From Patescibacteria group bacterium (GTDB taxonomy: Bacteria; Patescibacteriota; Patescibacteriia; UBA9934; GWF2-40-263): a stretch of DNA of 64,000 bases. Position 1 is the stretch's first letter; every line of letters starts with the position of its first letter. The stretch spans positions 11,965 to 75,964 of the forward strand of contig JBAZTR010000003.1 in the NCBI GenBank assembly GCA_041661745.1, given 5' to 3'. The notes below the pieces were generated by a model. It worked only from the letters and a program-made list of their open reading frames with translations. It ran no database searches and was not told where the DNA came from. A program made the translations under genes and the position numbers. Positions 3,001 through 47,958 of the stretch are shown here, piece by piece.

Positions 3001-5011
3001 GGGTTGAGACCCCGGCCGAAAAAGCCAAAACATCGTTAGCGCGACCGTCGGCAACATAAACTTCGTCCCCCGGTAACCATTCGTAGCTGTCATCACTTGC
3101 ATCAGCGGTTCCGGCGTCGTCAAAATACTTATTGGTGCGATACCACATGCAACCGGCACTACTCGCCGAGCACAATCCTTGATCCAAAGTATTAAACAAC
3201 CAGGTGCCCGCGGCCGAGGTATCAGCATTGGTAAAACTTAAACAGCCGGCATATTCCGCAGGACAGGAATCGCCATTAAAATTCCAAGTGTTCATTTCCC
3301 GGGTGCAATAGCCGTAGCCTTCGCAACTGCCATCAGCGCCTTGGGACAAACAGCTGGGCGAGTCCACGCAAGCGCCAGAACGACCGGAAATCATGGTGGT
3401 TAAAGTTTGCTCGCCAATCATGGAGGCTAAACACTGTTGACTGGGGTATTTTAAAACCCAATTTGGATCAATTAAGTGGCACCATGGATGCTCGGCATCG
3501 GCTTTATCATCGCTATTACAATAATTAAAACCATCAACTACTTCTTGCAAAGTAATCGGACTACCCCCGGAATTTTGTTCAGAGGCTGCAGCTAATTCCC
3601 AACCAATGGGAATAATGCGGGCTTTACGCATTTTTACCAAGTTCCCGTAACAGTAGCCATAGGTGTAACAAAGTGGATCTTGGTTATGTCTTAAATCATC
3701 CGATCGGTAAAGCGGCCACTCGCCATGCAAAAGACCATCATTAATAGCCTGAGAGACGGTCATGGTTTCGGTAACCGTGGTTCGAGAAACAGCTTGAAGA
3801 AAGTTAGCATCCATGACGCAGTTGTTGATTTGGCGGGTCATGGTGGAAGAGGCCGGGCAAGTAACAAATTCGGTTAAAACACTATAACTATCCAAGCTGA
3901 GCTTGGTGGTGGAAACCAGGCCGGAATAAAATTCTTCGGCCGCGCCGCGATCCCAAGAGGTTGAGCCGCCAATTCCTTCACTTAAATCTATTTCTTCATA
4001 AGTAATTCCCTTAAGAATACCGGTTTGAATTTCATCAAACCATGTCGACAATAAAGTATTGGTGAAAATCGAAAGAGCACTCATGCCAACCTTGGACCAA
4101 ATCGACGAATCAGACATGATATCGTAAAGGGCGCTTGTTTTGGTGTCATCAGCTTGGGAAAATTTACTATTAACTGTTGATTCAACCAAAGTGGCCGGCG
4201 TCTTAACTTTGCCGGTTACCACATCAACAACATCTTTAATTCCATTTTTAGCCAAGTACTCTTCAAATAAAACCCCTTTTGTTTCGGCCACTTCTCCCTG
4301 CACCGTCATATTAACTCCCACCACATAAGACAAGGTGCTCTGCCCCGGTTCCAAACTTTCGGCAAATTTTTCCAACATGTATTTGGAAGGATCTTCGGCT
4401 GTCTCTACCGCACTCTGATAAAAACTCGACCAATTGGTGGAAATCTGTTGCCAATCGCATTTGGGCTTGGGCGGATCGTACATCCCGACAATACCGAGCT
4501 GTAAACTTAAACGAAGCATTGGGTCTGGTGGCGCACAAAGGTTGAACTCAACATCGTAATAATCACTAATTTCCTCGCTTAAACTGCCGATGGCGTTGGC
4601 CGCGACATCAAGACCAAAAGTATTCCAAGCCTCTTTGCCGGTAAAAATTTCCACTAAGGGCGTCTGGCCATCGGCACCGGTCGCGAGCCACACCGCTGTA
4701 TTATAAGCCATGGTATCAACCAAATAACTGATGGCATCAAAAGACAAAGTGGCAATAATTGCCTGAATTACTGGACTAATGACGTTGTTATGAACATCGT
4801 CAACAGTTTTTGACACGGCTTCCGCAGGTTGTGAAACAAGCGGATTAGGCACGCCACTAGCCGAGGTAGCGGCTGATTTTATGATTTGTTCGGGAATTGA
4901 CAGCGGCACTGTTTTATCATTTGAAGCGGCCGAGGCAAAAAGTGGCGTTGATAAAAAAACTGAGACTGTTACCAACCCCAACAGAGACATTAATATTTTT
5001 TTGCGCAACAT
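1..5011 (-). CDS. Giant Cys/Asp/Glu-rich secreted protein. Partial: ATG at 5011 (minus) and open to the window edge, more than 1660 aa inside the window.
   Basis: The minus frame with first codon base at positions congruent to 1 mod 3 is not interrupted by any ORF-track ORF across 5 kb. Start MLRKKILMSLLGLVTVSVFLSTPLFASA is a signal peptide. Many Cys pairs and acidic residues; the first 60 nt spot-checked stop-free. Absent from the ORF track because it has no stop inside the window. Confidence 0.7.
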   Translation of the reverse strand, partial: MLRKKILMSLLGLVTVSVFLSTPLFASAASNDKTVPLSIPEQIIKSAATSASGVPNPLVSQPAEAVSKTVDDVHNNVISPVIQAIIATLSFDAISYLVDTMAYNTAVWLATGADGQTPLVEIFTGKEAWNTFGLDVAANAIGSLSEEISDYYDVEFNLCAPPDPMLRLSLQLGIVGMYDPPKPKCDWQQISTNWSSFYQSAVETAEDPSKYMLEKFAESLEPGQSTLSYVVGVNMTVQGEVAETKGVLFEEYLAKNGIKDVVDVVTGKVKTPATLVESTVNSKFSQADDTKTSALYDIMSDSSIWSKVGMSALSIFTNTLLSTWFDEIQTGILKGITYEEIDLSEGIGGSTSWDRGAAEEFYSGLVSTTKLSLDSYSVLTEFVTCPASSTMTRQINNCVMDANFLQAVSRTTVTETMTVSQAINDGLLHGEWPLYRSDDLRHNQDPLCYTYGYCYGNLVKMRKARIIPIGWELAAASEQNSGGSPITLQEVVDGFNYCNSDDKADAEHPWCHLIDPNWVLKYPSQQCLASMIGEQTLTTMISGRSGACVDSPSCLSQGADGSCEGYGYCTREMNTWNFNGDSCPAEYAGCLSFTNADTSAAGTWLFNTLDQGLCSASSAGCMWYRTNKYFDDAGTADASDDSYEWLPGDEVYVADGRANDVLAFSAGVSTPRVTYSYDTSNDGTADYSYDTYSYEDRIYFNADVQSCSAASVGCSEVYPVGDEVSLNVIRNPGFEDDEDDNGVADYWEARLSASSDYDEEGSNSYSGTDSYHLLDSTSDLLTQSGIPLQQGTFYTISVFAKGDTAADDGVITLDLVASDNSAVDLAGYSSDCTIATDSVTLSLSNADNEEMESFDCTFTTPILDDERLFIIAGLSIEPTSGGLYVDAIQLEAKTSPSSFHEGYNSGTETAKYLQLAPDWLGCSGDENDSAACRDYAASCSATDAGCSLYTPVDGDPAVPAILADGDECPAECVGYTTYAQEDTAYDTGEFPLYFIADTAEACGSSEVGCDEFTNLETEQVEVYSYLRACVTSEMADDEAEAVYFTWEGSDQTGYQLVSYQLLKSNLSSSATINYSETSGVDDTAAGDAPCTNWEVTSESTLECQDNSATLAALNECNEHADILTEPDCREFYDESGDIHYRLYSETVSISDDCTAYRKTDANETDCDASGGYFTASGECRYFVEPNESTACSAAAAGCREYTGGSSRNSSVIFNDYFEEGSYDNWEIFDGSPALSVSNESVAVDGHSLRVVAGSSSDAFQVLHDVSATGSTCTDEAGCESTDGVCTVDYSETYCGVLVDELTAGKTFVVSFWAKGTGSLTASLVEGGGAGDVHNFDDAVELTTGWQLFELGPLDTSGSDYSSFDENAVLTFFASDEDQIFYIDNVQLEQTEENLTLIKDSWVTPSTCDETPDGAPSDQYYLGCEEYTDQNDQTLYLYQFSDLCSEEVVGCEAIYDTQNSASPYTEYYNLSCYTDSGAAAVSATVCHFDQNMDGADEADEEVCTIVAGYTNCQFDYDGNLPVPLPNNIKLGPEAVYVPADEVKYAVVDQSFTCEADNMGCIEVGKPTFSQDRTVVESFTSTYVLNQPDNYGAIQCSNDELFCAEWASTKDGNYYFKDPGEQDCEYKSGVTIGSGTYDGWFRSGTTDFCYGSGFCSEKVAGADVACNEDSDC

Positions 5012-6612: not shown

Positions 6613-7190
6613 ATTTTTATTGAACCCTCGCGCAAAACAATAATCTTGCCATCCTTTTCGGTAATTATTGTCGAGGGGCGACGGTGTGGTAAACGACCAG
6701 CATCCAAATAATCATCAGGGCGATCACCTAATTGTTTTTTTACCGCTCGCGCCGAGTAACAAGTTGGCCGCCCGGACAAATTGGCCGAGGTGGAAACAAT
6801 CGGCCGACCCAAACGTCGCGACAAAGTACGAGCGATCGTGTGCGATGAAGCACGAACAGCAATTGTCCCCTTCTGAACCACACCAGATGGTAGTTTTACA
6901 CCATGGCGAAGTGACACAACGACCGTTAAAGCCCCCGGCCAATATTTTTTTACCAATTTTTTAATGGCCGGCGAAAAAACCGCATATTTTTCGGCCATTT
7001 TTAAATCAACGACAATCAAGGGAAAAGATTTTTCTTTTGTTCGCCCCTTAATAACAAAAACCTTGGCAACCGCCTTGGCATTAGTTGCATCAGCCGCCAA
7101 ACCATAAGCGGTTTCCGTTGGGAAAACCACAACCCCACCAGCTTTTATGGTGGCCACGGCTTTGTTTATTATTTTATCTGATAAAGACAC
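6609..7190 (-). CDS. tsaC: L-threonylcarbamoyladenylate synthase TsaC/YrdC
   Basis: TETAYGLAADA and STSANLSG motifs of the YrdC/Sua5 family. 4-nt overlap with ksgA. Confidence 0.85.
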   Translation of the reverse strand: MSLSDKIINKAVATIKAGGVVVFPTETAYGLAADATNAKAVAKVFVIKGRTKEKSFPLIVVDLKMAEKYAVFSPAIKKLVKKYWPGALTVVVSLRHGVKLPSGVVQKGTIAVRASSHTIARTLSRRLGRPIVSTSANLSGRPTCYSARAVKKQLGDRPDDYLDAGRLPHRRPSTIITEKDGKIIVLREGSIKI

Positions 7191-8164: not shown

Positions 8165-9284
8165 TTATGTGTCTTTATTTTCTTTGGCCCAACGATCGGA
8201 ATCGCCCAAAAGCTTTCTTAAATAAGCTTCAATGAATTGATCAATTTCGCCATTCAAAATTCCTTGCGTATCGGCTGTTTCAAAATCAGTCCGATGATCT
8301 TTAACCAACTGATACGGCTGAAGAACATAACTTCTGATTTGATTGCCCCATTCGGCACTCTTGAATTCCCCGCGCAGTTTCTTTTTCTCGGCCGCCAATT
8401 CCTGTTCTTGTTTATGAAAAAGTTTGGAAGCCAAAATCTTCATGGCCGTTTCCTTATTCTGTTGTTGACTGCGTTCGTTTTGGCATTGCACGGTAATGTT
8501 GGTGGGAATATGAACAATGCGCACGGCCGAATAAGTGGTGTTAACCGACTGACCACCCTTCCCGCCCGACATAAAAGTATCAATGCGCAAATCTTTAGGA
8601 TCAATGGCAACCGCGGAAATTTCTTCGAGTTCGGGAATCACCTCAATTAAAGCAAAGGAGGTGTGACGCATTTTTTCCGCGTCAAAAGGCGAGATACGCA
8701 CCAAACGATGGACACCGGCTTCGGATTTCAAATAACCAAAAGCGTAACGGCCGGCCACGCGAAAAGTCACGGATTTAAAACCAGCTTCCTCACCGCGCGA
8801 TTCCCACAAAACATCAACGGAAAAATTTTTCTTTTCGGCAAAACGTGTCAACATCCTAAACAGCATCTCGGCCCAATCCATTGCCTCGGTTCCCCCGGCT
8901 CCGGCGTGAATGGAAACAATGGCGTTGCTGGTATCGTGCTCACTGCAAAATAAAACAGTAAACTCCAACGCGGAAAATTTCTTTTCAATATCGATCAACT
9001 TATTCTGAATTTCATCACGCAAATTTTCGTCACCTAATTCAACCAAATCTTTGAGCTCGACTAATTCTTTTTTTATTCCCTCCCAAACTTCAAGTTCAGT
9101 CCGCAAATCAGCCGCCTTTTTGGAAACCTGTTTAGCCTTATCCTGATTAGACCAAAAATCCGAAGAGGCCATTTCGGCCTCTAGTGCTTTGACCTCAATT
9201 TTTACCCGATCAAGGTCAAAGTAACCCCCAAGTCGCGACCACGCGTGCCTGGAGGCTCTCAATTTTATTTAATAAATCTTTCAT
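8165..9284 (-). CDS. prfB: Peptide chain release factor 2 with programmed +1 ribosomal frameshift
   Basis: GGQ motif (SGGKGGQSVNTT). True ATG at 9284 gives MKDLLNKIESLQARVVATWGLL, then in-frame TGA within CTT TGA C (9215-9221) preceded by an internal GGGGG SD mimic. The +1 frame continues DLDRVKIEVKALEAEM. The ORF-track TTG start at 9262 is an artefact of the shift. Confidence 0.85.
9215..9230 (-). promoter_or_regulatory. RF2 autoregulatory +1 frameshift site (TGG GGG TTA CTT TGA C)
   Basis: Same architecture as the E. coli prfB site AGG GGG TAT CTT TGA C. Confidence 0.8.
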
Positions 9285-10765: not shown

Positions 10766-10781
10766 AAAACCAGCCGTCGAA
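10766..10781. repeat. 16-bp direct repeat AAAACCAGCCGTCGAA (left boundary of high-GC island 1)
   Basis: Identical copy at 11483-11498. Confidence 0.8.
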
Positions 10782-10884: not shown

Positions 10885-11430
10885 ATGGTCGGACGCAAAC
10901 ATTCCAAGACCGAGCTCGCCATCCTCGCCGGGATGCTGGTCTGCATCATCATCGGCGTGACCACCGCAGTGTGGTCTGGTGAGAAGTCCGCGCCGACTGT
11001 CCAGGATTTCCCGCCCGTCGGCAAGTACGGCATGCTCCTCTGTGTGCCGCAGGGCGGCAAGGAGGGCGATACCCTCGAGATCTACCTTGCCAACTCCACC
11101 CTGATGAACTGCCAGCCCACCCAGCCGAGCCGCATACTCGTTCTCCGGCCCGAGGGAGACAAGGGGATGTGCGGCAGGGTCGACGCCTGCCTCAACCCCG
11201 GCACTGCCACCGAGATCAAGGTGATGGGGCCGCCGCCGTTCGGACAGGTTGATCTCTGGTCGTACTGGGCGAAGACCCGGGACGGCTCGGGGTCCGAAGT
11301 GCGAGGCGAGGGACGGATCATCCTCAAGGCCGAGAACGACTTCAGCGCCGTGGTGCTGGTCGTGTCCCGGCTCGCGACCTATGGGCTCATGATAGAACGG
11401 CCCGATTCCGTGGGGCCGCTCGCCAAGTGA
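10885..11430 (+). CDS. Hypothetical membrane-anchored protein encoded in a high-GC island
   Basis: GGAGG 6 nt before ATG 10885. 181 aa with N-terminal TM helix (LAILAGMLVCIIIGVTTAVW). GC3-rich codons. Own terminator follows. The antisense ORFs are compositional artefacts. Confidence 0.5.
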   Translation: MVGRKHSKTELAILAGMLVCIIIGVTTAVWSGEKSAPTVQDFPPVGKYGMLLCVPQGGKEGDTLEIYLANSTLMNCQPTQPSRILVLRPEGDKGMCGRVDACLNPGTATEIKVMGPPPFGQVDLWSYWAKTRDGSGSEVRGEGRIILKAENDFSAVVLVVSRLATYGLMIERPDSVGPLAK

Positions 11431-11475: not shown

Positions 11476-11500
11476 TATTTCAAAAACCAGCCGTCGAAAC
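11476..11500 (-). terminator. groEL intrinsic terminator (CCAGCCGT cgaa ACGGCTGG, with a U-run on the minus strand)
   Basis: On the minus strand it reads CCAGCCGUUUCGACGGCUGGUUUUUG. It contains the right copy of the 16-bp island repeat (11483-11498). Confidence 0.55.
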
Positions 11501-22883: not shown

Positions 22884-24074
22884 TTATCGAACTACTCTAA
22901 CAAATCCACGCTTGCCTTTTTGTACCACGATTCCTTTCGGCACGACAAAGTCATAAGATTTAACGACTTCCCCATCAACCTTAACCCCGCCACCATCAAT
23001 TAAACGGCGAGCCTCGCCTTTGGAAGCAGCTAACTTGGTTTCCACAAGGACATCGATAACATTCATTGAACCAGAAATTTTAACTTCCGAAATTTCCTCG
23101 GGGATTTCTTTGTCGCGGAACATTTTATCGAAATTGGCTTGTGCCTCGGTTGCAGCTTTTTCAGAATGAAAAATTTTGACCACTTCAAAAGCCAAACGAG
23201 CTTTTTGATCGCGCGGATTGGCCATTTCTTTTTTTAATGCGGTAATTTCTTCCGAAGCTACGTCGGTAATTAACTCGAAACCTCCGTCGATCATTTCATC
23301 TGGCCAACTCATGATTTTGCCAAACATTTCATCAGCTGAATCCATGAGGGTAATCATGTTGCCTTCGCTCTTCCCCATCTTCTTACCAGTCGGATCGGTC
23401 AGAAGTTTCATAGTCATGACAAACTTTTCTTTTTTCTTCAAAATCTTCATCAAATCCCGCCCGGCCAACATGTTGAAAGTCTGATCGTTCCCGCCGATTT
23501 CACCATCGACATCCATTGCCACAGAATCGTAAGCTTGCATTAAAGGATACAAAAATTCATGAAGATGAATCGGTTTGCCTTCGGACATGCGTTTTTGAAA
23601 CATGTCGCGCTCAAGCATTTGTTGAACTGTAAAGTTGGAGGCCAATCCGACCACATCAACAAAGGACATTTTGGCCAACCATTTGCTATTAAACTTAATA
23701 ATGGCCGAATTTTTTCCAGAAAAAGAAATAAATTTCGAAGCTTGTTTTTTGTACAACTTACAATTAGCCAAAACTTGTTTTCTGGTAAGCATTTGGCGCG
23801 TGGCCGACTTGTCGGTAGGGTCGCCGATCGTGCCGGTAAAATCACCAATAAGAAGAACGACTTTGTGGCCAAGCTCTTGAAACAACTTAAGCTTGCGCAA
23901 GTTAATGGCGTGTCCCAAGTGAAGGGTTGGGCCGGTCGGATCGATACCAAGATATAAAGTCAGCGGCTCTTTACCCATTAATTTGGCACGGAGAAAATCG
24001 GCTGTGGGATAAACATTTTCCACGCCGCGAGTTAGAAGCTGATTTATTTTATTTTGGTCATGGATAGGTTTCAT
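22884..24074 (-). CDS. tyrS: Tyrosine--tRNA ligase
   Basis: LYLGIDPTGPTLHLGHA (HIGH), KMGKS, C-terminal S4 domain. Confidence 0.9.
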   Translation of the reverse strand: MKPIHDQNKINQLLTRGVENVYPTADFLRAKLMGKEPLTLYLGIDPTGPTLHLGHAINLRKLKLFQELGHKVVLLIGDFTGTIGDPTDKSATRQMLTRKQVLANCKLYKKQASKFISFSGKNSAIIKFNSKWLAKMSFVDVVGLASNFTVQQMLERDMFQKRMSEGKPIHLHEFLYPLMQAYDSVAMDVDGEIGGNDQTFNMLAGRDLMKILKKKEKFVMTMKLLTDPTGKKMGKSEGNMITLMDSADEMFGKIMSWPDEMIDGGFELITDVASEEITALKKEMANPRDQKARLAFEVVKIFHSEKAATEAQANFDKMFRDKEIPEEISEVKISGSMNVIDVLVETKLAASKGEARRLIDGGGVKVDGEVVKSYDFVVPKGIVVQKGKRGFVRVVR

Positions 24075-26722
24075 AGAGTGGAAATTTGTTGGTTCAAGGC
24101 TTCGGCTTTTTTGGCCGCCTCGTCCCGTTTTTGTTTCATGTCCTCGACTACTTTAGCCGGGGCTTTGGAAATAAATTCCTGGTTGGCAAGTTTGCCATCG
24201 AGACTGACAATATATTTTTTGGCTTCTTCAAGTTCAACAGACAAACGTTCGCGCTCTTTACCGGCGTCAATTTGACGATCAACTTTAAATTGATAATCAA
24301 ACGAGCCGTCTTTATTTTCCTCAATCACGAGATTTTCCACGCGCGACAAAGTTTTGATAATTTCAAGATTAATTTCGTCTTTAAAAATTTCAAAATATTC
24401 GCCAACAATAAGGGTCACATTAATTTTTTCTTTTGGTTCAACCTTGTTCTCGGCACGCCAGTTACGAAGTTTCTCGATTATTTCTCTCAAGCGTTCAAAT
24501 TCGGTATTGTTTTGTTTTGAAACCTTTACCTCCGGCCAATCATGAACAATCAACATTTTATCTGAGCCAAAATTGCTCCAAAGCTCTTCGGTCACAAACG
24601 GCATGAATGGATGCCACAAAACCAAAACTTGTTCCAAAACGTAAAGAAGAATCTCGTCGGTATTTTTCTCGAGTTTGGAATCCTTTCGTTGAATCTTGGC
24701 GATTTCCAAATACCAATCAGCCAATTCGCTCCAAGTAAAATCACGAAGAACTTCACCAGCTTGCGAGAACTCATATTTTTCCAAGTGATTGGTAACTTTT
24801 TCCGTCACCTCGGACAAACGACCAAGAATCCAATTATCGGCTAGTGTCATTGGGTTCGCCCTCTCCCTGAGGGAGAGGGTTGGGGTGAGGGATGTGGTTG
24901 TCAAAACAAAACGTGAAATGTTCCACAACTTATTTGTAAAGTTACGGAAGCCGGCAATCTTCTCTTCGTACATTTTGAAGTCATTGCCCGGACTGGTACC
25001 AATAACCATCGAAAGTCGCACTGCGTCAGCTCCGTACTTTTCAACCATCTCAATGGGGTCAATAGCATTGCCGGCTGACTTTGACATCTTCTTCCCGGCT
25101 TCGTCGCGAACAAGGCCGTGCAAATAAACATTTTTAAACGGTACTTCGCCAAGAGTGTAAGTGGTCATGAGAATCATGCGGGCGACCCAAAAGAAAATAA
25201 TGTCATAACCGGTCTCGAGGACAGTGGTCGGATGATACATTTCAAAATCTTCGGTCTTGTTCGGCCAACCGAGAGTGGAGAAAGTCCATAGGCCAGAAGA
25301 AAACCAAGTGTCGAGAGTATCCTCGTCGCGTTTCCAATCGTCACCAGGCGCTTCTGAACCAATATTAATTTCGTCGCCGCGATACCAAACCGGCACTTGA
25401 TGCCCAAACCAAATCTGACGACTAATATTCCAATCACGCAAGTTATCAATCCAATGAAAATACGTGCCGACGAATTGTTCGGGAATAATTTTTATCTGAT
25501 TAGAACACACCACGTGCTGCATTAGCTCTTTCAAAGTAATTTCCTGATCATCTTTCAAACCTTCGATCGGCGCGTGTTTCGAAGCGTGGAACTTGAACGG
25601 TTTATTTACACCAATAAACCATTGAAGTTTAGGTAACGGTTCAACCGCTGCACCACAACGATAACAAACCGAAAGATTTTGCGGCGTTTCTTCTTCTTTT
25701 TCAATCAACCCCTCGTTTCGCAGTTGCTCAATAATTTTTTCTCGGGCTTCAAGGACCGACAAACCAGCAAAAGCTCCGGCTTCGGCAGTCATAACGCCGT
25801 CTTCCCCGATCACAGTTATAACTGGCAAATTATTTTTCTGTGCCATCTCGGCGTCGATTTGACTGTGAGCCGGGGTAACCCCAAGCGCGCCGGTTCCGAA
25901 AGCCGGATCAACAGCTGAATCGGCAATAACTTTTATGGAAAGTTTTTGACCAACAAAATTCGCTTCAAGTGTTTGCCCGATAAATTTCTGGTAATGTTCA
26001 TCATCAGGATGAACAGCCACGGCCGTATCACCAAGTTTAGTTTCCGGACGTGTTGTAGAAATGGAGATTGGAAAATTTTTGTCGTATTTAAAAGTATAAA
26101 ACTTGGCAGTTGTTTCCTTGTGTTCCACTTCATCATCAGCCAAAGTTGATTTGCAACGCGGGCACCAGTTGATAACGCGGTGACCACGGTAAATCAAACC
26201 ATCGTCATACATCATTTTAAAAACTGTGTTGACAGCTTTGTTTCGGTCTTCGTCCAAAGTGTAACACTCACGCGACCAGTCGAGCGAAGCCCCCATTTTT
26301 TTAATTTGATGAACAATGGTGTCGTGCGAGGCCGCGGCAAACTTTTTTACTTCTTCAAGAAAAGCTTCACGCCCAAGTTCGCGGCGCGGATCTTTCATGC
26401 CTTTTTTAATAAGTTCTTTTTCAACCTTGGTTTGAGTGGCAATAGCCGCATGATCAGTGCCAGGAATCCAAAGAGCCCGTTTTCCCTGCATGCGAGCAAA
26501 ACGAGTCATGGTGTCCTCTAGGGCCAACATTGAAGCGTGACCCAGGTGAAGAATACCGGTGACATTAGGCGGTGGCAGAACCATGGAAAAAGTTTCTTTG
26601 CGCTTTTCAAGATCAGGCAGGTTTTCCGGACGAAAAAAACCGCTCTTTTCCCAAGCGGCATAAATATTGTCCTCATGATTTTGCGGCTCGTAAGCCTTGG
26701 GGAGGTCTGGTTGATTGGGCAT
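24071..26722 (-). CDS. valS: Valine--tRNA ligase
   Basis: PPNVTGILHLGHA, KMSKSAGN, editing domain, C-terminal coiled coil. 4-nt overlap with tyrS. Confidence 0.95.
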   Translation of the reverse strand: MPNQPDLPKAYEPQNHEDNIYAAWEKSGFFRPENLPDLEKRKETFSMVLPPPNVTGILHLGHASMLALEDTMTRFARMQGKRALWIPGTDHAAIATQTKVEKELIKKGMKDPRRELGREAFLEEVKKFAAASHDTIVHQIKKMGASLDWSRECYTLDEDRNKAVNTVFKMMYDDGLIYRGHRVINWCPRCKSTLADDEVEHKETTAKFYTFKYDKNFPISISTTRPETKLGDTAVAVHPDDEHYQKFIGQTLEANFVGQKLSIKVIADSAVDPAFGTGALGVTPAHSQIDAEMAQKNNLPVITVIGEDGVMTAEAGAFAGLSVLEAREKIIEQLRNEGLIEKEEETPQNLSVCYRCGAAVEPLPKLQWFIGVNKPFKFHASKHAPIEGLKDDQEITLKELMQHVVCSNQIKIIPEQFVGTYFHWIDNLRDWNISRQIWFGHQVPVWYRGDEINIGSEAPGDDWKRDEDTLDTWFSSGLWTFSTLGWPNKTEDFEMYHPTTVLETGYDIIFFWVARMILMTTYTLGEVPFKNVYLHGLVRDEAGKKMSKSAGNAIDPIEMVEKYGADAVRLSMVIGTSPGNDFKMYEEKIAGFRNFTNKLWNISRFVLTTTSLTPTLSLRERANPMTLADNWILGRLSEVTEKVTNHLEKYEFSQAGEVLRDFTWSELADWYLEIAKIQRKDSKLEKNTDEILLYVLEQVLVLWHPFMPFVTEELWSNFGSDKMLIVHDWPEVKVSKQNNTEFERLREIIEKLRNWRAENKVEPKEKINVTLIVGEYFEIFKDEINLEIIKTLSRVENLVIEENKDGSFDYQFKVDRQIDAGKERERLSVELEEAKKYIVSLDGKLANQEFISKAPAKVVEDMKQKRDEAAKKAEALNQQISTL
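24849..24883. repeat. GC-rich palindromic mini-element inside valS (CCCTCTCCC tga GGGAGAGGG TTGGGGTGAGGGA), same family as 6367-6401 but in opposite orientation
   Basis: Encodes SLTPTLSLRERA in-frame within a variable linker. Confidence 0.75.
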
Positions 26723-26851
26723 AACAGTATTAGAAGTATACGAAAAAATGGCCTTTTTCGCAATACTGAATTTTACACTTCCCTTTTGTCTAACTTACTG
26801 CTAAATTACCGGAGCGAAAAAACTCCAACTCCGACTGGGAGGCAAACTCCG

Positions 26852-27178
26852 ATGGACGATCCTTTCCGAACCTTTTGCATTTGCTGGTTGGTACCTCATG
26901 TTCTCCACTCCAGCGAGCAGATCTGCCCCCACCGTGCCCTCCTGGCCAAGGTCCTCGACCGCACCGGGTCGGCCGTGTGCATGCCCTGGCAGCTCGCTCT
27001 GACGCCCGAGGCTTACCTGGAGCGCCTGGGCTTCGACAAGGCCGAACTCGAGGAGTGCAACGCCTTCCTCGGCCAGTTCGGTCTGCACCTCGGCATGAAC
27101 GCCGACGACCTGCCGGAGGGCGACTTCCCGTGGTGCAACGAGATCTTCACCCTTCCCGACTTGGCTGCGGCCGCCTAG
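26852..27178 (+). CDS. Hypothetical small protein encoded in high-GC island 2
   Basis: GGGAGG 9 nt before ATG 26852. 108 aa (MDDPFRTFCICWLVPHV...). GC3-rich. Followed by a GC hairpin plus T-run. Confidence 0.45.
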   Translation: MDDPFRTFCICWLVPHVLHSSEQICPHRALLAKVLDRTGSAVCMPWQLALTPEAYLERLGFDKAELEECNAFLGQFGLHLGMNADDLPEGDFPWCNEIFTLPDLAAAA

Positions 27179-27204
27179 TCTCCAAGACCCTGAGGCCAGT
27201 CGAA

Positions 27205-27240
27205 GGGCTCTGCCCCGAGCAATCGTCTCCGGGGCTTTTT
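27205..27240 (+). terminator. Intrinsic terminator (GCCCCGAG..CTCCGGGGCTTTTT)
   Basis: Hairpin plus T-run after the island-2 ORF. Confidence 0.45.
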
Positions 27241-27387
27241 AATACCAACCCCTGACAAAAACCTTAACGCCCTATAATGCCCGAACGCCGCCTAGCCAAC
27301 CACTTCCCTTGACCTTATCCGCCTGGGCGGGTAATATAACTCCTTAACCATTCCTTCCCCATGCTTAAGGGTTAATACAAAAACTAG

Positions 27388-39580: not shown

Positions 39581-39704
39581 AAAAACGATTGTTTATTTAG
39601 CTTAATTTTGACCGACTAATATACCATAAAACAACGGTTTTGTCAATGAGGCAATAAGAAAAATAGGCTTAAATTAGCCTATTTTAATAACATTAAAACT
39701 GGTT

Positions 39705-40550
39705 TTAAGATAGAAACTTCTTTACATCGGCCAAAGTAACCTTTTTCCGACCTGGCTGGTTTTTGTAACCCCAATTGTCACCTTCCCCGAAAACAAAGCC
39801 GCCAAATTTCTTTAAAAAAGCTTCGGCGATTGGTGTTTCCTGCACGCTTATAGCGTTGCGACCGTTCTCCACCAAAATAATTGGCGGTGATTTTTTAAGC
39901 CGCTGCCAAACCAATTCGGAAAGATAAGCCCGCAAGCCAAATTTGGAATTTATCGTTACAATAAAAAATCCGTTCCATTCTTTTCGTTTTTGCCAAGCCA
40001 ATCGCGCTTTCTTTTGATAAATCTTTTCTTTGGCCGGATCAACAAAAATTATGTTTAATTTTTTTCGAAAAGAAAAGACTTTTTTTATTTCCACGGTTGA
40101 ATAACCGGCTCGGCCTAAAGCTTCGATAAAGCCGCGATCTAAAATTCCAATACCGCGCACCAGACGCGGTGAAAAACCCAAAGCCGAAAGTTTTTTATCA
40201 GTCAGATTGAATAATTTTAAAAATTGTTCGAGGGAGGATGGTTTAATTTTTCTCTTGACATCATGGGCACGATCAAGCGTTCCGTATTGGTGATGATCGA
40301 TGATAACTAATTCCCTTCCGGCTTGCCGCAACTTCGTTTCTGTTTTAATCCCTGGCATTTCTACGATAAAAATCTTTTGATATTTCCCGGCTTGAATCTT
40401 TTTTAACAAACCCTTCTCTTTATCTAAAGTTGCCCCATGTTCTTGCCACGAAGCAATGATCGGCAAACCAATGGCCGCGGCAAGTTTGGCAATCAAAACC
40501 GCTTCGGCATCATTGATAGGAATAACGATCACGTTGTCTTTTAGATTCAT
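39705..40550 (-). CDS. Hypothetical protein (start at internal Met MNLKDNVIV)
   Basis: 281 aa; no family recognised with confidence. Confidence 0.4.
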   Translation of the reverse strand: MNLKDNVIVIPINDAEAVLIAKLAAAIGLPIIASWQEHGATLDKEKGLLKKIQAGKYQKIFIVEMPGIKTETKLRQAGRELVIIDHHQYGTLDRAHDVKRKIKPSSLEQFLKLFNLTDKKLSALGFSPRLVRGIGILDRGFIEALGRAGYSTVEIKKVFSFRKKLNIIFVDPAKEKIYQKKARLAWQKRKEWNGFFIVTINSKFGLRAYLSELVWQRLKKSPPIILVENGRNAISVQETPIAEAFLKKFGGFVFGEGDNWGYKNQPGRKKVTLADVKKFLS

Positions 40551-40570
40551 AATGGTTTGATTATAACAAA

Positions 40571-40642
40571 ACTCCCTTCCGCCAACCACTGGGAAGTGAC
40601 TGAAAGAAGGGGGCCGTCGAATTCGCTTTCGACGGGAAGATG
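40571..40642. repeat. Repeat element R_X (CTCCCTTCCGCCAACCACT...GAAGGGGG GCCGTCGAATTCGCTTTCGACGG GAAGATGG), 3' of island gene A
   Basis: The 5' half recurs at 41065-41112 and the hairpin half at 41879-41911. Confidence 0.7.
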
Positions 40643-40661
40643 GTTAGCGACCTTACGTTGA

Positions 40662-41039
40662 CTACAATTCCGCGGTCTCGATCGAGACGCGGATGAGCCG
40701 AACGTAACGGTCAAAGGCGAAGACCGCCCGGCCGGCCTCGTCGGTGCCGGCGACGATCAACCGCCCGGTCGCGTCGCGCTTGAACTCGGCGCGGAGCAGC
40801 GGGAAGGTGATTTCGCTGCGGGCCCCGAGGAGGCGCGCGAGGATCGGGAGAGGGGCGACCACTTCGGCCGCCACAACCTCGCCGACCTCGGCCGCCAACC
40901 GAGCCACCGTTCCGATGGGGTCGTCGCCAAAGGCGACGTCCATCGTGACGATTTCGAGGTCAATGCCGAACTTGGCACGGAGCCAGTCTTCGGCCGCGGG
41001 GAGGACGGGGTGACGGGTGATTCGGAGGAATTTGGACAT
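40662..41039 (-). CDS. Hypothetical protein A (125 aa) of the high-GC cassette array
   Basis: AGGAG 7 nt before the ATG. GC3-rich codons. 3' end encoded by a 14-bp palindrome GTCTCGATCGAGAC. Confidence 0.5.
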   Translation of the reverse strand: MSKFLRITRHPVLPAAEDWLRAKFGIDLEIVTMDVAFGDDPIGTVARLAAEVGEVVAAEVVAPLPILARLLGARSEITFPLLRAEFKRDATGRLIVAGTDEAGRAVFAFDRYVRLIRVSIETAEL

Positions 41040-41064
41040 GAGGAACTCCTAGGTTTGTTTTTCT

Positions 41065-41112
41065 CCCTTCCGCCAACCACTCGAGAGTGATTAGAAAAAG
41101 GGAGCTGTCGTG
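41065..41112. repeat. Repeat element R_Y (CTCCCTTCCGCCAACCACTCGAGAGTGATTAGAAAAAGGGAGCTGTCG)
   Basis: About 80% identical to the 5' half of R_X. Confidence 0.7.
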
Positions 41113-41234
41113 GAACAAGTACGATCCACAACAGGACGATTGTTTGGCCTTCCGCCCCCGCGGGCTAGGCTATACCTCCATTAAAGGTTAGGGGTTAAAG
41201 ATGGGCCGACCCGGCCGCCTTTCGGAGTTACCTC

Positions 41235-41723
41235 CTACTTGGCAGCCGATGCCGTTTTGGCCGGAGCCGAAGCCGCCCGCTTGGCCGCGGCCGAGCTGAT
41301 GCCAGACGCCTCGAGGGCGGCCGCCATCTTCTCGGCATTGGCCTCCGCCTCGATGCGCGCGGTGAGGCGGGCGGCGTGAGCCACCGCAACCTCGAGCCGC
41401 GCGACGCTGCGTCGGTGGGCCTCGAGAACCTCGACCAGCCGATTGGCCGCCAGTCGCTTGGCCGCAAGGGCCTCGCGACGAGCAGCTTCGGCGGCCCGCC
41501 CTTCCGCGATCGGCGCCTGGCGGGCAGCCGACCTCTGGAAGGCGGCGTCGGCCGCGACAAAGGCGGCGTCGGCATTCCGGCTTTCGACCTCGCGGTCGAA
41601 GAGGCGTGCCTCGACAGCCTTGAGGTCGGCCTGAGCCGGTCTCACCGCGAGCTTGATCTGGCGGTGGAGCTCGTCGGCCGGGGTAACGACGCGAGGGGCA
41701 CGGACAATACGAGCATGGAACAT
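41235..41723 (-). CDS. Ala/Arg-rich coiled-coil protein B (162 aa) of the high-GC cassette array
   Basis: AGGAGA 6 nt before ATG 41723. MFHARIVRAPRVV... The longer ORF-track versions (41846 start, or the Arg/Gly-rich alternate frame) are rejected. Confidence 0.5.
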   Translation of the reverse strand: MFHARIVRAPRVVTPADELHRQIKLAVRPAQADLKAVEARLFDREVESRNADAAFVAADAAFQRSAARQAPIAEGRAAEAARREALAAKRLAANRLVEVLEAHRRSVARLEVAVAHAARLTARIEAEANAEKMAAALEASGISSAAAKRAASAPAKTASAAK

Positions 41724-41878
41724 GACTGTCTCCTGACTGGGGGTAGAAGGAAAAGACCAGGAATAAATGATTGCTTGCCGTGGATCTCGGCCGGAACCAA
41801 GGAGGTGACCGAACGACCTGGCAAAGATCACATAGCAAGCAACCAAGAAATGATTTTATAAAAAATCAGCTCTTGGTT

Positions 41879-41911
41879 GCCGTCGAGTTCGTTCTCGACG
41901 GGAAGGATTGG
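41879..41911. repeat. Repeat element R_Z (GCCGTCGAGTTCGTTCTCGACGGGAAGGATTGG), hairpin half of R_X, immediately 3' of gene C
   Basis: CCGTCGAG..CTCGACGG inverted repeat. Confidence 0.7.
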
Positions 41912-41916
41912 CCGTA

Positions 41917-42078
41917 TCACACGGACCCGGTGCAGACGCGACGGATGATCTTTCCGTCACGCCGAACCACCACCACCTTCGGCCGCTTGGGCTTTGGGGT
42001 GGACCGGACGAGAGCCTCCGGATTGGTGGTGAACCAGGTGGCCAGATGCATTACGACGCCGTAGGACTTGGTAGTCAT
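41917..42078 (-). CDS. Small basic protein C (53 aa; below the ORF-track size cutoff)
   Basis: AGGAG 6 nt before ATG 42078. Hand translation: MTTKSYGVVMHLATWFTTNPEALVRSTPKPKRPKVVVVRRDGKIIRRVCTGSV*. Confidence 0.4.
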   Translation of the reverse strand: MTTKSYGVVMHLATWFTTNPEALVRSTPKPKRPKVVVVRRDGKIIRRVCTGSV

Positions 42079-42407
42079 CAGAAACTCCTGTTAAGGGGTG
42101 ACAACTTTTTTGGAAACATAAAGGGGACTTTGCAAGTCCCCAGAATATTTTTTGCTCCGGAAATTTGCCCGACACTTCCCCACCATTCGCCCAGGTCTGG
42201 GGTCCCAAACTAAGACAGGTTTGTGCCGAACAAATTTCCGGATCCGATCGAATTAACCTAATCCGATCAGTACGGCTAAAGTAGCCACCGCTGAAACTAT
42301 ATAAGTGATTGGGTACAACATAGAATTTCTTCTGCTGATAACAAGCATGGGGTTATCGGCAAGAGAGATTCGCGCAATCGGTTAGCCAAACCGACTGCGC
42401 GAGACGT

Positions 42408-42436
42408 GCCCCGAGGCTTCAGCCTCGGGTGTTTTG
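42408..42436 (+). terminator. Intrinsic terminator CCCGAGGC ttca GCCTCGGG TGTTTTGG
   Basis: 8-bp GC stem and tetraloop. The T-run follows on the plus strand only. Confidence 0.55.
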
Positions 42437-42475
42437 GACACACCTCCGGAAGTTTTTCGTTTATCCCCTGTTTTA

Positions 42476-42500
42476 GCCGTTGTCCAGACGGCTTTTTACC
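42476..42500 (+). terminator. Weaker terminator AGCCGT tgtccag ACGGCT TTTTACC
   Basis: 6-bp stem plus T-run. Confidence 0.35.
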
Positions 42501-42954
42501 AAGAAAACCTCGGCACGTGCCGAGTGCACGCATAGAGTGTTGGCCATACACTCCGCCTTGATTTTTCGGAAAACATGGGGTGTTAAGCGATCCGCAACAG
42601 GATCCGGAACATCTAATCTCTCTTAGAATGTTCCGATTTCTGTAGCGGATTTTACTCAATACATAATTTTTGCTGTATTGAGTCCAGATTGCCGAATTGG
42701 AACCTCGGACAAGGGTAAAACCCATGTTTTAACTGAATTCTGGGTGAAGTTGCCTATTCGAACAGTCCAGATCGCTTAGTGGCTCTTCGCTCACTTGTTC
42801 ACAAGCATTGAACGTTGCACTCTAACATAAACATAAAATACTGTCAAGGGTTAAAGTACCAAATCGACTATTTTGGCTAAAGTTAGAATAAAAAAATGTC
42901 CACGGTAAGTGGACAAATACTATTTTTTATCTAATATTAGCTGTATTTTACCCC

Positions 42955-42990
42955 TTGACAAATTTCCTGATTGTGATATTATAGCTTGTC
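42955..42990 (+). promoter_or_regulatory. Near-consensus sigma70 promoter: TTGACA, 16-17 nt, TATTAT/ATTATA
   Basis: cTTGACAaatttcctgattgtgaTATTATAgcttg. The predicted transcript starts near 42992 and is antisense to the 3' side of the TrmB-family gene. Confidence 0.5.
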
Positions 42991-43357
42991 TTTCAAAGGG
43001 GAAACCCAATGATTGACCGCTGCTGGACATCCGTTCAGCAGACCAGAGTCAGGTCGCCTCATCGCGACCTGGAGGACGACATGAACGGCTAACCCCCCCC
43101 TCTTCTAGTGCGGGGTGTTGGCAAAACTCCCATTCGTTGAATGGAGTCAAAAGGGGCAGAAACGTCCGTGAACAAAGAAAACACGGGCGACCGACAACAA
43201 GAACTTCGCCCCTTTAATCATGGATCATGGTCAACCTGACCCCGGTCCAAGACAAGACTCTTCAACGGAGGTGCGTTATGGGAGGCGCCTAACACCCCCA
43301 CAGCCCCCGCGGCACCAATGGTCTCGACGACCTGCGGTGCCCGGGGGTTCGTGATAT

Positions 43358-44104
43358 CTAGCGATCTTTTTCCGCGCCGTCCCAGGCCGCGTCAAACAAA
43401 ACCTTAGCGGTTTCGGCAAAAATTTTATTTTCCAAAACTACGGCAATTATTTTTCCAACAAAAGAAACAAAGGCAACACGGTTCCCATAGATCCAAATGT
43501 CACCATGAAATTCACCTAATTTATTTTTATCTAAAAAACGATAAGTAACCTTTTCACGTCGATGGGTCAATTCCCCGATGTGCAGAAGGTTAATTTTTAT
43601 TTTACCGGGATCAAGAACCATCCGAACATCTTTCAAAAGTTCAGAGTCTAAAAGATTATAGACATCCTCCATGTTAGATAATTCGCGTAAAGAATCTGGG
43701 GCAACTGAAGCCACGTCGGTAAAAATAGCGCTTAGAGCTTCTTGGCCCTCAAAAAAACGCACGGCTGGACGTTCGCCGCCACCCAACATTTTCACCTCTG
43801 GTAAAACCTTGTTTAAAGTTTCCAACTTTTCCTGCATTTCATGAACATGTTCTTTAAAATGCGATAAAGCGCGTTCCGGCTCTTCGGCAGCAAAAACCCG
43901 CTTCTTGCCACGTTCGTGAGAAGACATTAAACCGCGGTTTTGTAAGGCCTCAATATTGGTATAAGTGGCCGTGCGAGAGAGGTTGGCTTTTTTGGCAATT
44001 TCTTGTACCGGGGCTGGGCCAAGGTTCAAGCTGGCAAAATAAACCTTAGTTTCGGTTTCCGATAAACCGAGCGAGGTAAATAATCGAAAGATATCAGTTG
44101 ACAT
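43358..44104 (-). CDS. TrmB-family transcriptional regulator (N-terminal wHTH plus C-terminal domain)
   Basis: Start of protein ..KVYFASLNLGPAPVQEIAKKANLSRTATYTNIEALQNRGLM.. is a TrmB-type HTH. Confidence 0.7.
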   Translation of the reverse strand: MSTDIFRLFTSLGLSETETKVYFASLNLGPAPVQEIAKKANLSRTATYTNIEALQNRGLMSSHERGKKRVFAAEEPERALSHFKEHVHEMQEKLETLNKVLPEVKMLGGGERPAVRFFEGQEALSAIFTDVASVAPDSLRELSNMEDVYNLLDSELLKDVRMVLDPGKIKINLLHIGELTHRREKVTYRFLDKNKLGEFHGDIWIYGNRVAFVSFVGKIIAVVLENKIFAETAKVLFDAAWDGAEKDR

Positions 44105-47111: not shown

Positions 47112-47218
47112 ATTGTGTTAGGGAAAGGGAGTTAAAGGGAAAGAAAGGGAGGGAACGGGAGGGAAAGAAGATAAAATTTCCTTCTCTTTAATTCCCTTTT
47201 CATCTCTTTCCTTCTCTT
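47112..47218. repeat. Polypurine (GGGAAAGGGAGTTAAAGGGAAAGAAAGGGAGGGAACGGGAGGGAAAGAAG) / polypyrimidine (TTCCTTCTCTTTAATTCCCTTTTCATCTCTTTCCTTCTCTTC) mirror repeat in the ileS leader
   Basis: Seen directly in the sequence. Potential long imperfect hairpin or H-DNA. No T-box motifs seen. Confidence 0.6.
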
Positions 47219-47385: not shown

Positions 47386-47958
47386 CTAGGAAACCTTGCG
47401 GAGAGCGAGGAAGCGGCAATGGGCATCCCAGTCGTCAGCGCCGTGGTCGATGTACAGGCGGCGCTCGCGGTCACCGCGATAGAGACAAGGGAAGAACAGG
47501 CGGCCGTGGCGGCGCCAGGCCTGGCCCAGAGCCACGATGGGGTAATTCCTCTGTTCCTCGGGGCACTTGGCTCCGTAGGCGAGGAGCTCAGCCGCCGAGG
47601 CGGGGATGACCCCCAACTGTTCGATCTCGTGGAGAGCTTCGTTGGTCGAGGCTCGACCGAGGTAGACGAGTACGGGCTCGTACTTGATCACGCCGGTGGA
47701 CTTGTTCGGGAAGTGCTCGGCCGTGACATCCATATCGCGACAGTTGTAGTGGCCGGCCGCGACCATCGCCTCGAAGGCGAGGTCATAGTTGACTTCGAGA
47801 ACGGAGTCCTCGAACCGCCCTTCGATGATGGCTTGGAGGGCGAGGCTGAGCTGCGCCGGGCTGAACGGGTAGCCGCCCCTCTGCCGGAGCTGGCGCTTGA
47901 TCTCAGTGAGCTGGCCGTCCAGATCGTAATACTGTTCGCCGGTGACGATGGGCGCCAT
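47386..47958 (-). CDS. Hypothetical protein D (190 aa) in high-GC island 4
   Basis: GGGAGA 6 nt before ATG 47958 (MAPIVTGEQYYDLDGQL...). GC3-rich. The antisense 260-aa ORF is rejected. Confidence 0.45.
   Translation of the reverse strand: MAPIVTGEQYYDLDGQLTEIKRQLRQRGGYPFSPAQLSLALQAIIEGRFEDSVLEVNYDLAFEAMVAAGHYNCRDMDVTAEHFPNKSTGVIKYEPVLVYLGRASTNEALHEIEQLGVIPASAAELLAYGAKCPEEQRNYPIVALGQAWRRHGRLFFPCLYRGDRERRLYIDHGADDWDAHCRFLALRKVS

Follow-up and report, generated by a model that had tools for sequence, protein, structure and literature searches.

The G+C-Rich Block and Its Genes

A G+C-rich block was analyzed at positions 40565-42095 of a 64,000-nucleotide (nt) stretch of DNA, hereafter called the window, from a Patescibacteria group bacterium (assembly GCA_041661745.1, contig JBAZTR010000003.1, positions 11,965 to 75,964). 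The block contains three genes, designated C, B, and A, all on the minus strand. An initial annotation of this DNA had described the block as a cassette-like gene array with a repeated hairpin element. The present analysis adds that one bipartite hairpin module accompanies each gene, that the structure of the module is conserved by covariation, and that the content of the array varies among related genomes at the module junctions.

The G+C content is 0.56–0.72 over positions 40501-41700, compared with 0.38–0.41 over positions 39601-40500. The genome overall is about 44% G+C, and its nearest relatives in GTDB are metagenome-assembled genomes (MAGs) of Candidatus Uhrbacteria. The G+C content at third codon positions (GC3) is 0.86 for gene A, 0.79 for gene B, and 0.80 for gene C, while it is 0.39 both for the downstream gene encoding a 281-amino acid (aa) protein and for the upstream gene encoding a TrmB-family regulator. 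These values confirm that the block is high in G+C with three same-strand, GC3-biased genes, as initially annotated. The open reading frames (ORFs) in the same orientation had also been proposed to be promoterless. This is supported by a promoter scan, in which no promoter-like site was found inside the block and strong promoter-like sites near the block were found only at 42.8–43.0 kb.

Related loci, labeled L001 and so on, were gathered from GTDB genomes with the TrmB-family gene as an anchor, and then by exact-protein look-ups. Gene A (40662-41039) is a variable member of the array and encodes a protein of 125 aa. Its close relatives number four among 5.8 billion proteins, and the family has 88 representatives among 1.84 billion proteins. 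The predicted structure is a generic three-layer alpha/beta fold without a specific match, and Pfam scans of longer (fused) members of the family gave no informative domains. The comparison with A′, the copy at L001 that is 66% identical, gave a ratio of nonsynonymous to synonymous divergence (dN/dS) of 0.26. Gene B (41235-41723), another variable member of the array, encodes an Ala/Arg-rich, helical protein of 162 aa. A homologue, designated B′, is present at the equivalent position in L008, L019, and L020, with 44% identity over 150 aa (E = 4e-25) and a GC3 of 0.93.

Gene C (41917-42078) encodes a basic protein of 53 aa with an invariant WFTT.P motif. The family has 18 members, and the dN/dS is approximately 0.3–0.4. 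The predicted structure was too poor for a structure search, with a predicted local distance difference test score (pLDDT) of 63 and a predicted template modeling score (pTM) of 0.26, and a metagenome scan anchored on gene C recovered only two contigs, both from the organism of L008. The dN/dS values indicate that genes A and C are under purifying selection. Gene C had been regarded as a cassette; instead, it is conserved and stands first in the platform at this locus, beside a TrmB-family gene in every lineage examined (L001, L006–L008, L021, L023, L025, L028, and L033). A, B, C, and other island proteins could not be assigned to a family with Pfam, PHROGs, or PADLOC, in agreement with the earlier statement that A belongs to no recognized family. 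Downstream of the array, the 281-aa gene (39705-40550, minus strand) is conserved, shows a faint DHH-like match, and is the fixed downstream anchor of the array.

It is very improbable that the block is an artefact, either of chimeric assembly or of chance open frames in non-coding G+C-rich DNA. Across the block, assemblies from ENA and Logan match the window with 100% identity. These independent assemblies derive from two different runs, one being a second sequencing run, and rule out an assembly artefact, including a chimera. As for chance open frames, G+C-rich DNA does yield long open frames on several strands and frames, and the region of gene B is indeed open in two frames. Against this, A, B, and C each have homologues, albeit rare, so that the lack of conservation considered in the initial annotation was not observed; in addition, purifying selection acts on A and C, and B′ is found at the equivalent position in a relative.

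Bipartite Hairpin Modules

Three repeats, R_X, R_Y, and R_Z, had been reported from the block. They are copies of one bipartite module on the minus strand, composed of a short G+C hairpin and a long hairpin of about 40 nt. The short hairpin has 7–10 bp and is followed within 0–2 nt by the long hairpin, designated h5, which consists of an outer stem, a 1 × 1 internal loop, an inner stem, and a tetraloop. Folding of all three copies revealed one module 3′ of every gene, including gene B. The repeats are real by their chance expectations. The 19-nt sequence CTCCCTTCCGCCAACCACT is found exactly at 40572 and 41063 (chance expectation 0.01), within a wider repeat of 48 nt that is 81% identical between R_X and R_Y. 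The hairpin GCCGTCGARTTCGYTYTCGACGG is found in the window only at 40613 and 41879 (chance expectation 0).

The first module, M1 (41839-41900), lies 3′ of gene C and includes R_Z. Its short hairpin (41881-41900) is formed by CCGTCGAG/CTCGACGG, and R_Z continues into a long hairpin of equal shape (41839-41880). The fold of M1 has a free energy of −33.8 kcal/mol (z = −6.8). A near-identical pair of short and long hairpins, similar to M1, is found 3′ of a different gene in L008.

The second module, M2 (41063-41134), corresponds to R_Y and lies 3′ of gene B, with the short hairpin at 41105-41134 (CTGTTGTGGA/TCCACGACAG) and h5 at 41063-41104. Its fold has a free energy of −39.7 kcal/mol (z = −5.7). 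No U tract is present 3′ of it, where an A-rich stretch leads into the Shine-Dalgarno sequence of gene A. R_Y had been considered to represent only the 5′ half of R_X, and the structured repeat to be present 3′ of genes A and C only. That half is the long hairpin h5. Because R_Y carries its own diverged short hairpin (CTGTTGTGGA/TCCACGACAG), gene B also has a structured 3′ element, and neither description applies.

The third module, M3 (40574-40635), corresponds to R_X and lies 3′ of gene A, with the short hairpin at 40614-40635 (CCGTCGAA/TTCGACGG) and h5 at 40574-40611 (z = −2.45 for the fold). M2 and M3 start 491 bp apart, a distance equal to the length of the gene A unit, and the two h5 copies bracket gene A. 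Directly 3′ of M3, a U tract, TTTTGT (40556-40573, minus strand), overlaps the extended −10 box of the 281-aa gene, TGTTATAAT. Such an arrangement indicates that the array ends in this segment, which also serves as promoter for the neighboring gene. The long hairpin, a T run, and TATAAT are also present before the orthologue of the 281-aa gene in L006, L007, L008, and L028. A G+C-rich stem directly followed by a U tract, the criterion for Rho-independent terminators, is observed in M3 and its orthologues in these four loci, and not in M1 and M2.

The alignment of h5 was made with nine copies from six genomes. Paired cells account for 91% of the alignment, compared with 77% in shuffles and 40–58% with partners slid. 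Compensatory changes were observed at 13 of the 20 pairs. The covariation score was 0.614, compared with 0.345 in shuffles, and was reached by none of the 500 shuffles. These values indicate that the module structure is conserved by covariation. The coding strand folds into a stabler structure than its complement in 11 of the 14 elements, and the h5 alignment contains 30 G-U cells against 6 A-C cells. Because the coding strand folds better and the pairing is rich in G-U, a function in the transcript is favored, instead of or in addition to a role as a recombination site in DNA.

The modules are confined to this locus. A covariance model, R1, detected only R_Y (41052-41141, 73.5 bits) and R_X (40559-40642, 62.8 bits) on the coding strand of the 64-kb window at E < 0.1. 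With only two copies in 64 kb, the modules are not genome-wide terminators, a possibility that the initial annotation had raised. The same model detected one extra copy upstream of gene C in L006 and had no match in more distant relatives. Searches against Rfam 15 with the window and four related loci, at gathering and permissive thresholds, gave only tRNAs and chance hits. The motif GCCGTCGAR has exactly four matches in the window, namely the hairpins of R_X and R_Z and both ends of a G+C-rich island at 10.8–11.4 kb; the earlier observation that the hairpin core also marks the boundary of that island was thus reproduced.

Upstream Platform and Leader

The TrmB-family regulator gene (43358-44104, minus strand) is the fixed upstream anchor of the array. 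Two divergent sigma-70-type promoters were recognized between this gene and gene C. The minus-strand promoter (42819-42847) is composed of TTGACA, a 17-nt spacer, and TAGAGT, preceded by TG, and agrees with the consensus at 10 of the 12 positions. It points into the leader and genes C, B, and A, and is likely to be the driver of the whole array. The plus-strand promoter (42955-42982) agrees at 11 of the 12 positions, has an extended −10 box, and points to the 3′ end of the TrmB gene. Positions 42751-42993 are 75.5% identical to L001, and the promoter stretch is inside the blocks conserved between L006 and L007/L028.

The features found at positions 42096-42820 identify this part as a structured leader. 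It includes a conserved mini-ORF on the minus strand (42253-42321), which encodes a hydrophobic peptide of 22 aa, MLYPITYIVSAVATLAVLIGLG. The mini-ORF is present in the window, L001, L007, L008, and L028; on visual inspection, numerous differences are at third codon positions. The product may be either a leader peptide or a small peptide located in the membrane. Downstream of the mini-ORF and before gene C, an inverted repeat, CCGGAAATTTG...CAAATTTCCGG, forms a long leader hairpin on the minus strand (42156-42242), and similar CCGGAAATTTG...CAAATTTCCGG inverted repeats were recognized by eye in L001, L006, and L008. A terminator-like hairpin (42123-42141, minus strand) is located approximately 45 nt upstream of the start of gene C.

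In the initial annotation, the whole of 42096-43357 was regarded as noncoding, and this region and the TrmB gene were suggested to have been acquired together with the block. The former does not hold for 42096-42820, which is a leader with a conserved 22-aa ORF. As for the latter, the TrmB gene, the divergent promoters, and the plus-strand stretch constitute a conserved core, and of this region only the leader 3′ of the minus-strand promoter falls within the variable zone.

The plus-strand stretch extends 3′ of the plus-strand promoter to 43357. Its approximately 370 nt contain no conserved ORF; a conserved GGAGGTG...ATGGGAGG motif is present, and a G+C-rich terminator is located at the end. 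Its position is conserved in five genomes, and it has no Rfam match. A consensus fold of 42985-43357 from the five genomes revealed no convincing shared structure, with a positive covariation term. Only chance-sized matches were found for the complementarity of this stretch or of the leader to the modules.

Variation of the Array among Related Loci

The order of the isoleucyl-tRNA synthetase (IleRS) gene, the TrmB gene, the variable stretch, the 281-aa gene, a 566-aa gene, and the L19 gene is kept in L006, L007, L008, L020, and L028. The variable stretch contains C, B, and A in the window. In L001, which comes from the same sample as the window, it contains C, an acidic mini-ORF, and genes for proteins of 110 aa, A′, 105 aa, 225 aa, and 117 aa, in this order. 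L007 contains C and counterparts of the last two genes (225′ and 117′), and L028 contains C and a 108-aa gene. C, a 69-aa gene, and B′ are found in L008 and L020. L006 contains only C, with a G+C-rich DUF6847 gene inserted upstream of it.

Among L006, L007, and L028, TrmB is 99–100% identical and the flanks are 86–97% identical at the nucleotide level, but C is only 53–58% identical and the cassettes are unrelated. The variable zone of these three loci starts approximately 80 nt downstream of the minus-strand promoter, and its other limit is exactly where the short hairpin meets the terminal h5. L006 represents a site without cassettes after C, in which hairpins h1–h4 and h5 are followed by TTTTTGTTATAAT and the 281-aa gene. 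The occupied sites retain the terminal h5, and a second, internal h5 precedes the inserted genes. B′ of L008 is bracketed by two 91-nt copies with 89% identity to each other. These alignments indicate that, where relatives differ in gene content, the differing segments are delimited by module junctions.

For the 225-aa and 117-aa cassettes, which L001 and L007 share, dN/dS is approximately 0.33 and the synonymous divergence is 1.0–1.1, compared with 0.96 for TrmB. Because the synonymous divergence equals that of TrmB, vertical descent is indicated for these two cassettes. Upstream of the 117-aa gene lies a 140-nt three-hairpin spacer, which is 92% identical between L001 and L007, with the 117-aa proteins approximately 55% identical; this level of identity indicates that the spacers are under strong constraint. 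Copies of this spacer are present at 3241-3380, 4460-4603, and 5297-5437 of L001, and at 7000-7137 and 7775-7915 of L007. They end with a T run and a Shine-Dalgarno sequence that is able to pair with it, and their 3′ arm resembles the 3′ arm of h5.

It is unlikely that the block is an old, ordinary islet acquired horizontally, with repeats that are terminators or stabilizing hairpins duplicated together with adjacent DNA, and with random deletions in which the modules were passive. Gene orders are collinear with one superset (C, 69, B, A, 105, 225, and 117), which fits differential loss, but at least five independent presence/absence differences have their breakpoints at module junctions. The array is stable in all five contigs of this population and the terminal module resembles a normal intrinsic terminator, as an ordinary islet would have it; against this, the spacers are far more conserved than synonymous sites, and GC3 values of 0.8–0.93 persist in genomes of approximately 45% G+C. 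Gene B is an example, with GC3 values of 0.79–0.93 in two deeply diverged genomes, each of approximately 45% G+C. Random decay is also too slow, because genomes with near-identical TrmB (99–100%) differ entirely in their cassettes and share only 53–58% identity in C.

In more distant loci (L021, L023, L025, and L033), a TrmB-family gene is likewise separated by a gap from C, which is followed by a run of small genes on the same strand, nearly all lacking a Pfam match. In L021 (8681-10948), a leader repeat of approximately 70 nt is found four times upstream of the array genes, with two copies 100% identical over 76 nt, and one gene of this array encodes a receiver-domain-like protein (Pfam E = 2.6e-5). 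The DUF6847 gene of L006 (7672-8184, Pfam E = 2.5e-9) has a G+C content of 0.60–0.66 and is followed by its own bipartite module at 8475-8557. In L009, from a relative with 65% G+C, the gap between the TrmB gene and the 281-aa gene (2870-3925) contains a repeat of approximately 110 nt in three copies (…GTCATCCTGAGCGCACGCGAAGGATCC…) and an ORF for a zinc-ribbon-like protein of 156 aa. The sequence of L009 indicates that the hotspot exists in this relative with a different repeat.

Other G+C-Rich Islets and Nearby Features

The G+C-rich island at 10.8–11.4 kb contains an orphan gene on the plus strand (10885-11430, GC3 of 0.86). An exact direct repeat of 16 nt, AAAACCAGCCGTCGAA, flanks this gene at 10766-10781 and 11483-11498. 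This repeat duplicates the loop, the 3′ arm, and the U tract of the groEL terminator, and GCCGTCGAA is common to the repeat and R_X.

Another G+C-rich orphan gene (47386-47958, minus strand) encodes a protein of 190 aa, has a GC3 of 0.83, and is located between rpiB and the IleRS gene. No direct repeat was found in its flanks. The spacer between rpiB and the IleRS gene, which is 1152 bp here and 61 bp in L023, is a second intergenic hotspot of variation. A long purine/pyrimidine-rich inverted repeat with 34-nt arms (47122-47211) immediately precedes the start of the IleRS gene. Hairpins upstream of the IleRS gene in L006 (approximately 2204-2319) and L007 (approximately 1283-1368), and between the IleRS and TrmB genes in L008, gave chance microRNA-like Rfam matches. 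A third short G+C-rich stretch, at approximately 26850-27180 on the plus strand (G+C content of 0.62 over 27001-27300), contains a further orphan ORF between an ORF at 24071-26722 and a 376-aa ORF at 27431.

At L030, in a genome of approximately 45% G+C, a G+C-elevated islet (400-2800) contains an A-family gene (1404-1820) and, next to it, a C-like gene for 43 aa (1949-2080), together with a DUF3228 gene. A repeated leader precedes each gene. This is another locus, beside a class II aminoacyl-tRNA synthetase gene and the gene for elongation factor P (EF-P).

Comparison with Known Systems

An integron array has a tyrosine integrase gene (intI), an attI site, and a Pc promoter. The attC site is a single imperfect hairpin of 57–141 nt with extrahelical bases and an unpaired central spacer; it is recombined as the bottom strand and carries the inverse core RYYYAAC and the core GTTRRRY. 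The array analyzed here resembles integron arrays and clusters of attC sites lacking integron-integrases (CALINs) in that same-orientation ORFs, largely without their own promoters, are each followed by a structured imperfect palindrome of 60–90 nt. An upstream platform promoter, content that varies among close relatives, and foreign codon usage in the ORFs with lineage-typical spacers are further similarities. Unlike integrons and CALINs, this array has neither an IntI among the proteins searched nor the R″/R′ cores. No integron integrase was found among the Pfam matches of the 20 kb around the block, the block genes, and ten unassigned ORFs of the window. The window covers 64 kb of a contig of at least 162 kb, so an unlinked integrase gene may lie elsewhere. 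The cores GTTRRRY and RYYYAAC have 0 matches on either strand of 40551-42100, with a background of 1.66 matches per kb in the window. The absence of an integron integrase and canonical attC cores had been stated in the initial annotation, and is upheld by these Pfam matches and the motif scan. The modules also appear to differ in form: they are 62–72 nt in length and consist of two adjacent hairpins, the long one with a 1 × 1 internal loop, and the coding strand folds better, a bias that points to RNA. A gene and its spacer are sometimes parted here, and no polymorphism within the population was seen in the five contigs. No relevant report of integrons or cassette arrays from Patescibacteria was retrieved in a literature search; a paper on hypervariation in Gracilibacteria concerns a tandem peptide repeat and is unrelated to this array.

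The likeness to a cassette array stands for the variable content at a fixed locus and for the repeat 3′ of each ORF, but C is not a cassette and no mobilization machinery was found among the window ORFs tested. A true site-specific cassette system, with integron-like logic and unrelated parts, is a doubtful explanation. The module would be the recombination site, as a single-stranded DNA fold or as a duplex, and an unlinked recombinase would add an ORF and its module at the 3′ end of a resident module. Such a system would account for the 491-bp gene A unit between two h5 copies, with the inserted DNA beginning right after the 3′ arm of the stem; for B′ of L008 between its 91-nt copies; and for the cassettes of L028 and L007, which lie between an internal h5 and the constant terminal short hairpin and h5. 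However, A′ of L001 has different flanks, the synonymous divergence of the 225-aa and 117-aa genes points to vertical descent, and the five contigs show no polymorphism. The foreign codon usage of the ORFs, in contrast to modules that look native to the locus, is also in favor of cassettes, as are the restriction of GCCGTCGAR to island boundaries, the exact 16-nt direct repeat at the 10.8–11.4 kb island, and the occurrence of A-like and C-like genes together in the similar islet of L030. Against these observations, no recombinase was found in the tested ORFs of the window or among the Pfam matches within approximately 10 kb of the block, attC cores are absent, and the G-U bias of the coding strand fits RNA better. 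The loop of the short hairpin, with 6 nt in the window and 7 nt in L008, is not constant in length as a crossover spacer would be, and the short hairpin was rejected as a tyrosine-recombinase core site for this difference.

The locus can be compared with hypervariable islets at chromosomal hotspots, with which it shares fixed, near-identical flanks, unrelated accessory content, and atypical composition. Unlike typical islets of this kind, it is only 1.5–2.5 kb in length and has one repeated structured spacer and a dedicated platform of regulator, promoter, and leader.

Repetitive extragenic palindromes (REPs) and bacterial interspersed mosaic elements (BIMEs) are dispersed over a genome in many copies, often accompanied by a RAYT/Y1 transposase. 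The modules are similar to REP/BIME elements and intrinsic terminators in that hairpins are found from a few to approximately 100 nt after the stop codons, with a U tract on the last copy, and a role in the formation or stability of mRNA 3′ ends is plausible. They are unlike REP/BIME elements in their confinement to one locus (two R1 matches in 64 kb), their bipartite conserved shape, and their internal copies without a U tract. A REP-like element was rejected for this confinement. No gene for a RAYT/Y1 transposase was seen in the window.

The nearest mechanistic analogue is the promoter early stem-loop (PeSL) system of T4-type phages. As described in two reports, non-essential ORFan genes in the hyperplastic regions of these phages are separated by PeSL stem-loop motifs (PMC2839356, PMC4122927). 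The motifs act as portable homology, and insertions, deletions, and replacements between close relatives are reported to occur at them (PMC2839356). In these reports, a PeSL is a strong sigma-70 promoter with a stem-loop, and mini-circles were shown (PMC2839356, PMC4122927). The boundaries of indels and replacements coincide with the modules in the same way, both among L006, L007, and L028 and between the window and L008. Unlike PeSLs, M1 and M2 have no promoter-like site in or beside them, and M3 adjoins only the −10 box of the next gene. The array is also chromosomal, in a Patescibacterium, and without viral matches: no PHROG hits were obtained, and IMG/VR contains no match to the 140-nt repeat core or the A family.

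A Proposed Hypervariable Accessory-Gene Array and Its Implications

With roughly an even chance of being right, the block is interpreted as a hypervariable accessory-gene array specific to a lineage, the Candidatus Uhrbacteria clade, in which the modules are intercistronic and terminator RNA structures and at the same time the breakpoints of gene gain and loss. The array begins with a conserved platform composed of the TrmB-family regulator, the two divergent sigma-70-type promoters, the structured leader with the mini-ORF, and protein C. Changing small accessory ORFs, with one module each, follow, and the array stops before the conserved 281-aa gene. It may be read as a single transcript from the upstream promoter, with the internal modules as intercistronic RNA structures for processing or stability, and the terminal module as the intrinsic terminator of the array.

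The module copies may also be the sites where DNA is gained and lost. Recombination between module copies, possibly after the uptake of DNA from relatives with higher G+C, would be the likely route, and site-specific recombination of the integron type would not. An empty site for the gene A unit would have M2 followed immediately by TTTTGTTATAAT. The high GC3 of A, B, and the C of this genome suggests recent arrivals or replacements from a G+C-rich donor pool. A foreign origin of the cassettes is possible, given that one cassette of L006 encodes a DUF6847 protein; the presence of this gene means that cassettes can derive from families outside the clade.

Several observations weigh against this interpretation. 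The coding-strand preference of the modules is only moderate, and their structure was predicted on that strand, which biases the pairing towards G-U; a folded single-stranded DNA site would give equal covariation. A′ of L001 is flanked by the other spacer type, the 140-nt three-hairpin repeat, and its homology to the window ends at the Shine-Dalgarno sequence and the stop codon, so a module and a gene do not always travel together. The G+C richness of gene B in two genomes whose synonymous sites are saturated is not explained by simple vertical descent and amelioration. If high mobility is assumed, the stability of the array also counts against it: no variants were found in this population, and the order C-B-A is seen in all 5 of the 5 contigs encoding the identical 281-aa neighbor protein. 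No mobilization machinery was found among the window ORFs tested, and no excised or polymorphic forms among these five contigs. The 16-nt direct repeat that shares GCCGTCGAA with R_X looks more like the trace of a site-specific event.

A broader proposal, put forward tentatively as a less probable one, is that Uhrbacteria, and perhaps other Patescibacteria, have a gene-capture platform different from integrons. Small foreign ORFs would be inserted at terminator-type hairpins with duplication of the hairpin, and the module would take the role of attC under the platform of TrmB, leader, and C. If this were true, the 16-nt duplication of half of the groEL terminator, the shared GCCGTCGAA core, and the islet of L030 would be products of one process.

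Patescibacteria have tiny genomes, which are thought to leave little room for accessory genes, and to our knowledge gene gain and exchange in this group are poorly known. The locus described here is a defined hotspot of comparable organization, in which near-identical flanks enclose different small orphan genes, some of them strongly foreign in composition, with a structured spacer conserved between them. As a recombination site, this spacer would represent a cassette system independent of integrons. If the spacer is an RNA element only, it would be a conserved, covarying RNA structure in an uncultured phylum, and the locus would mark the genes that are likeliest to be involved in host/phage interactions.

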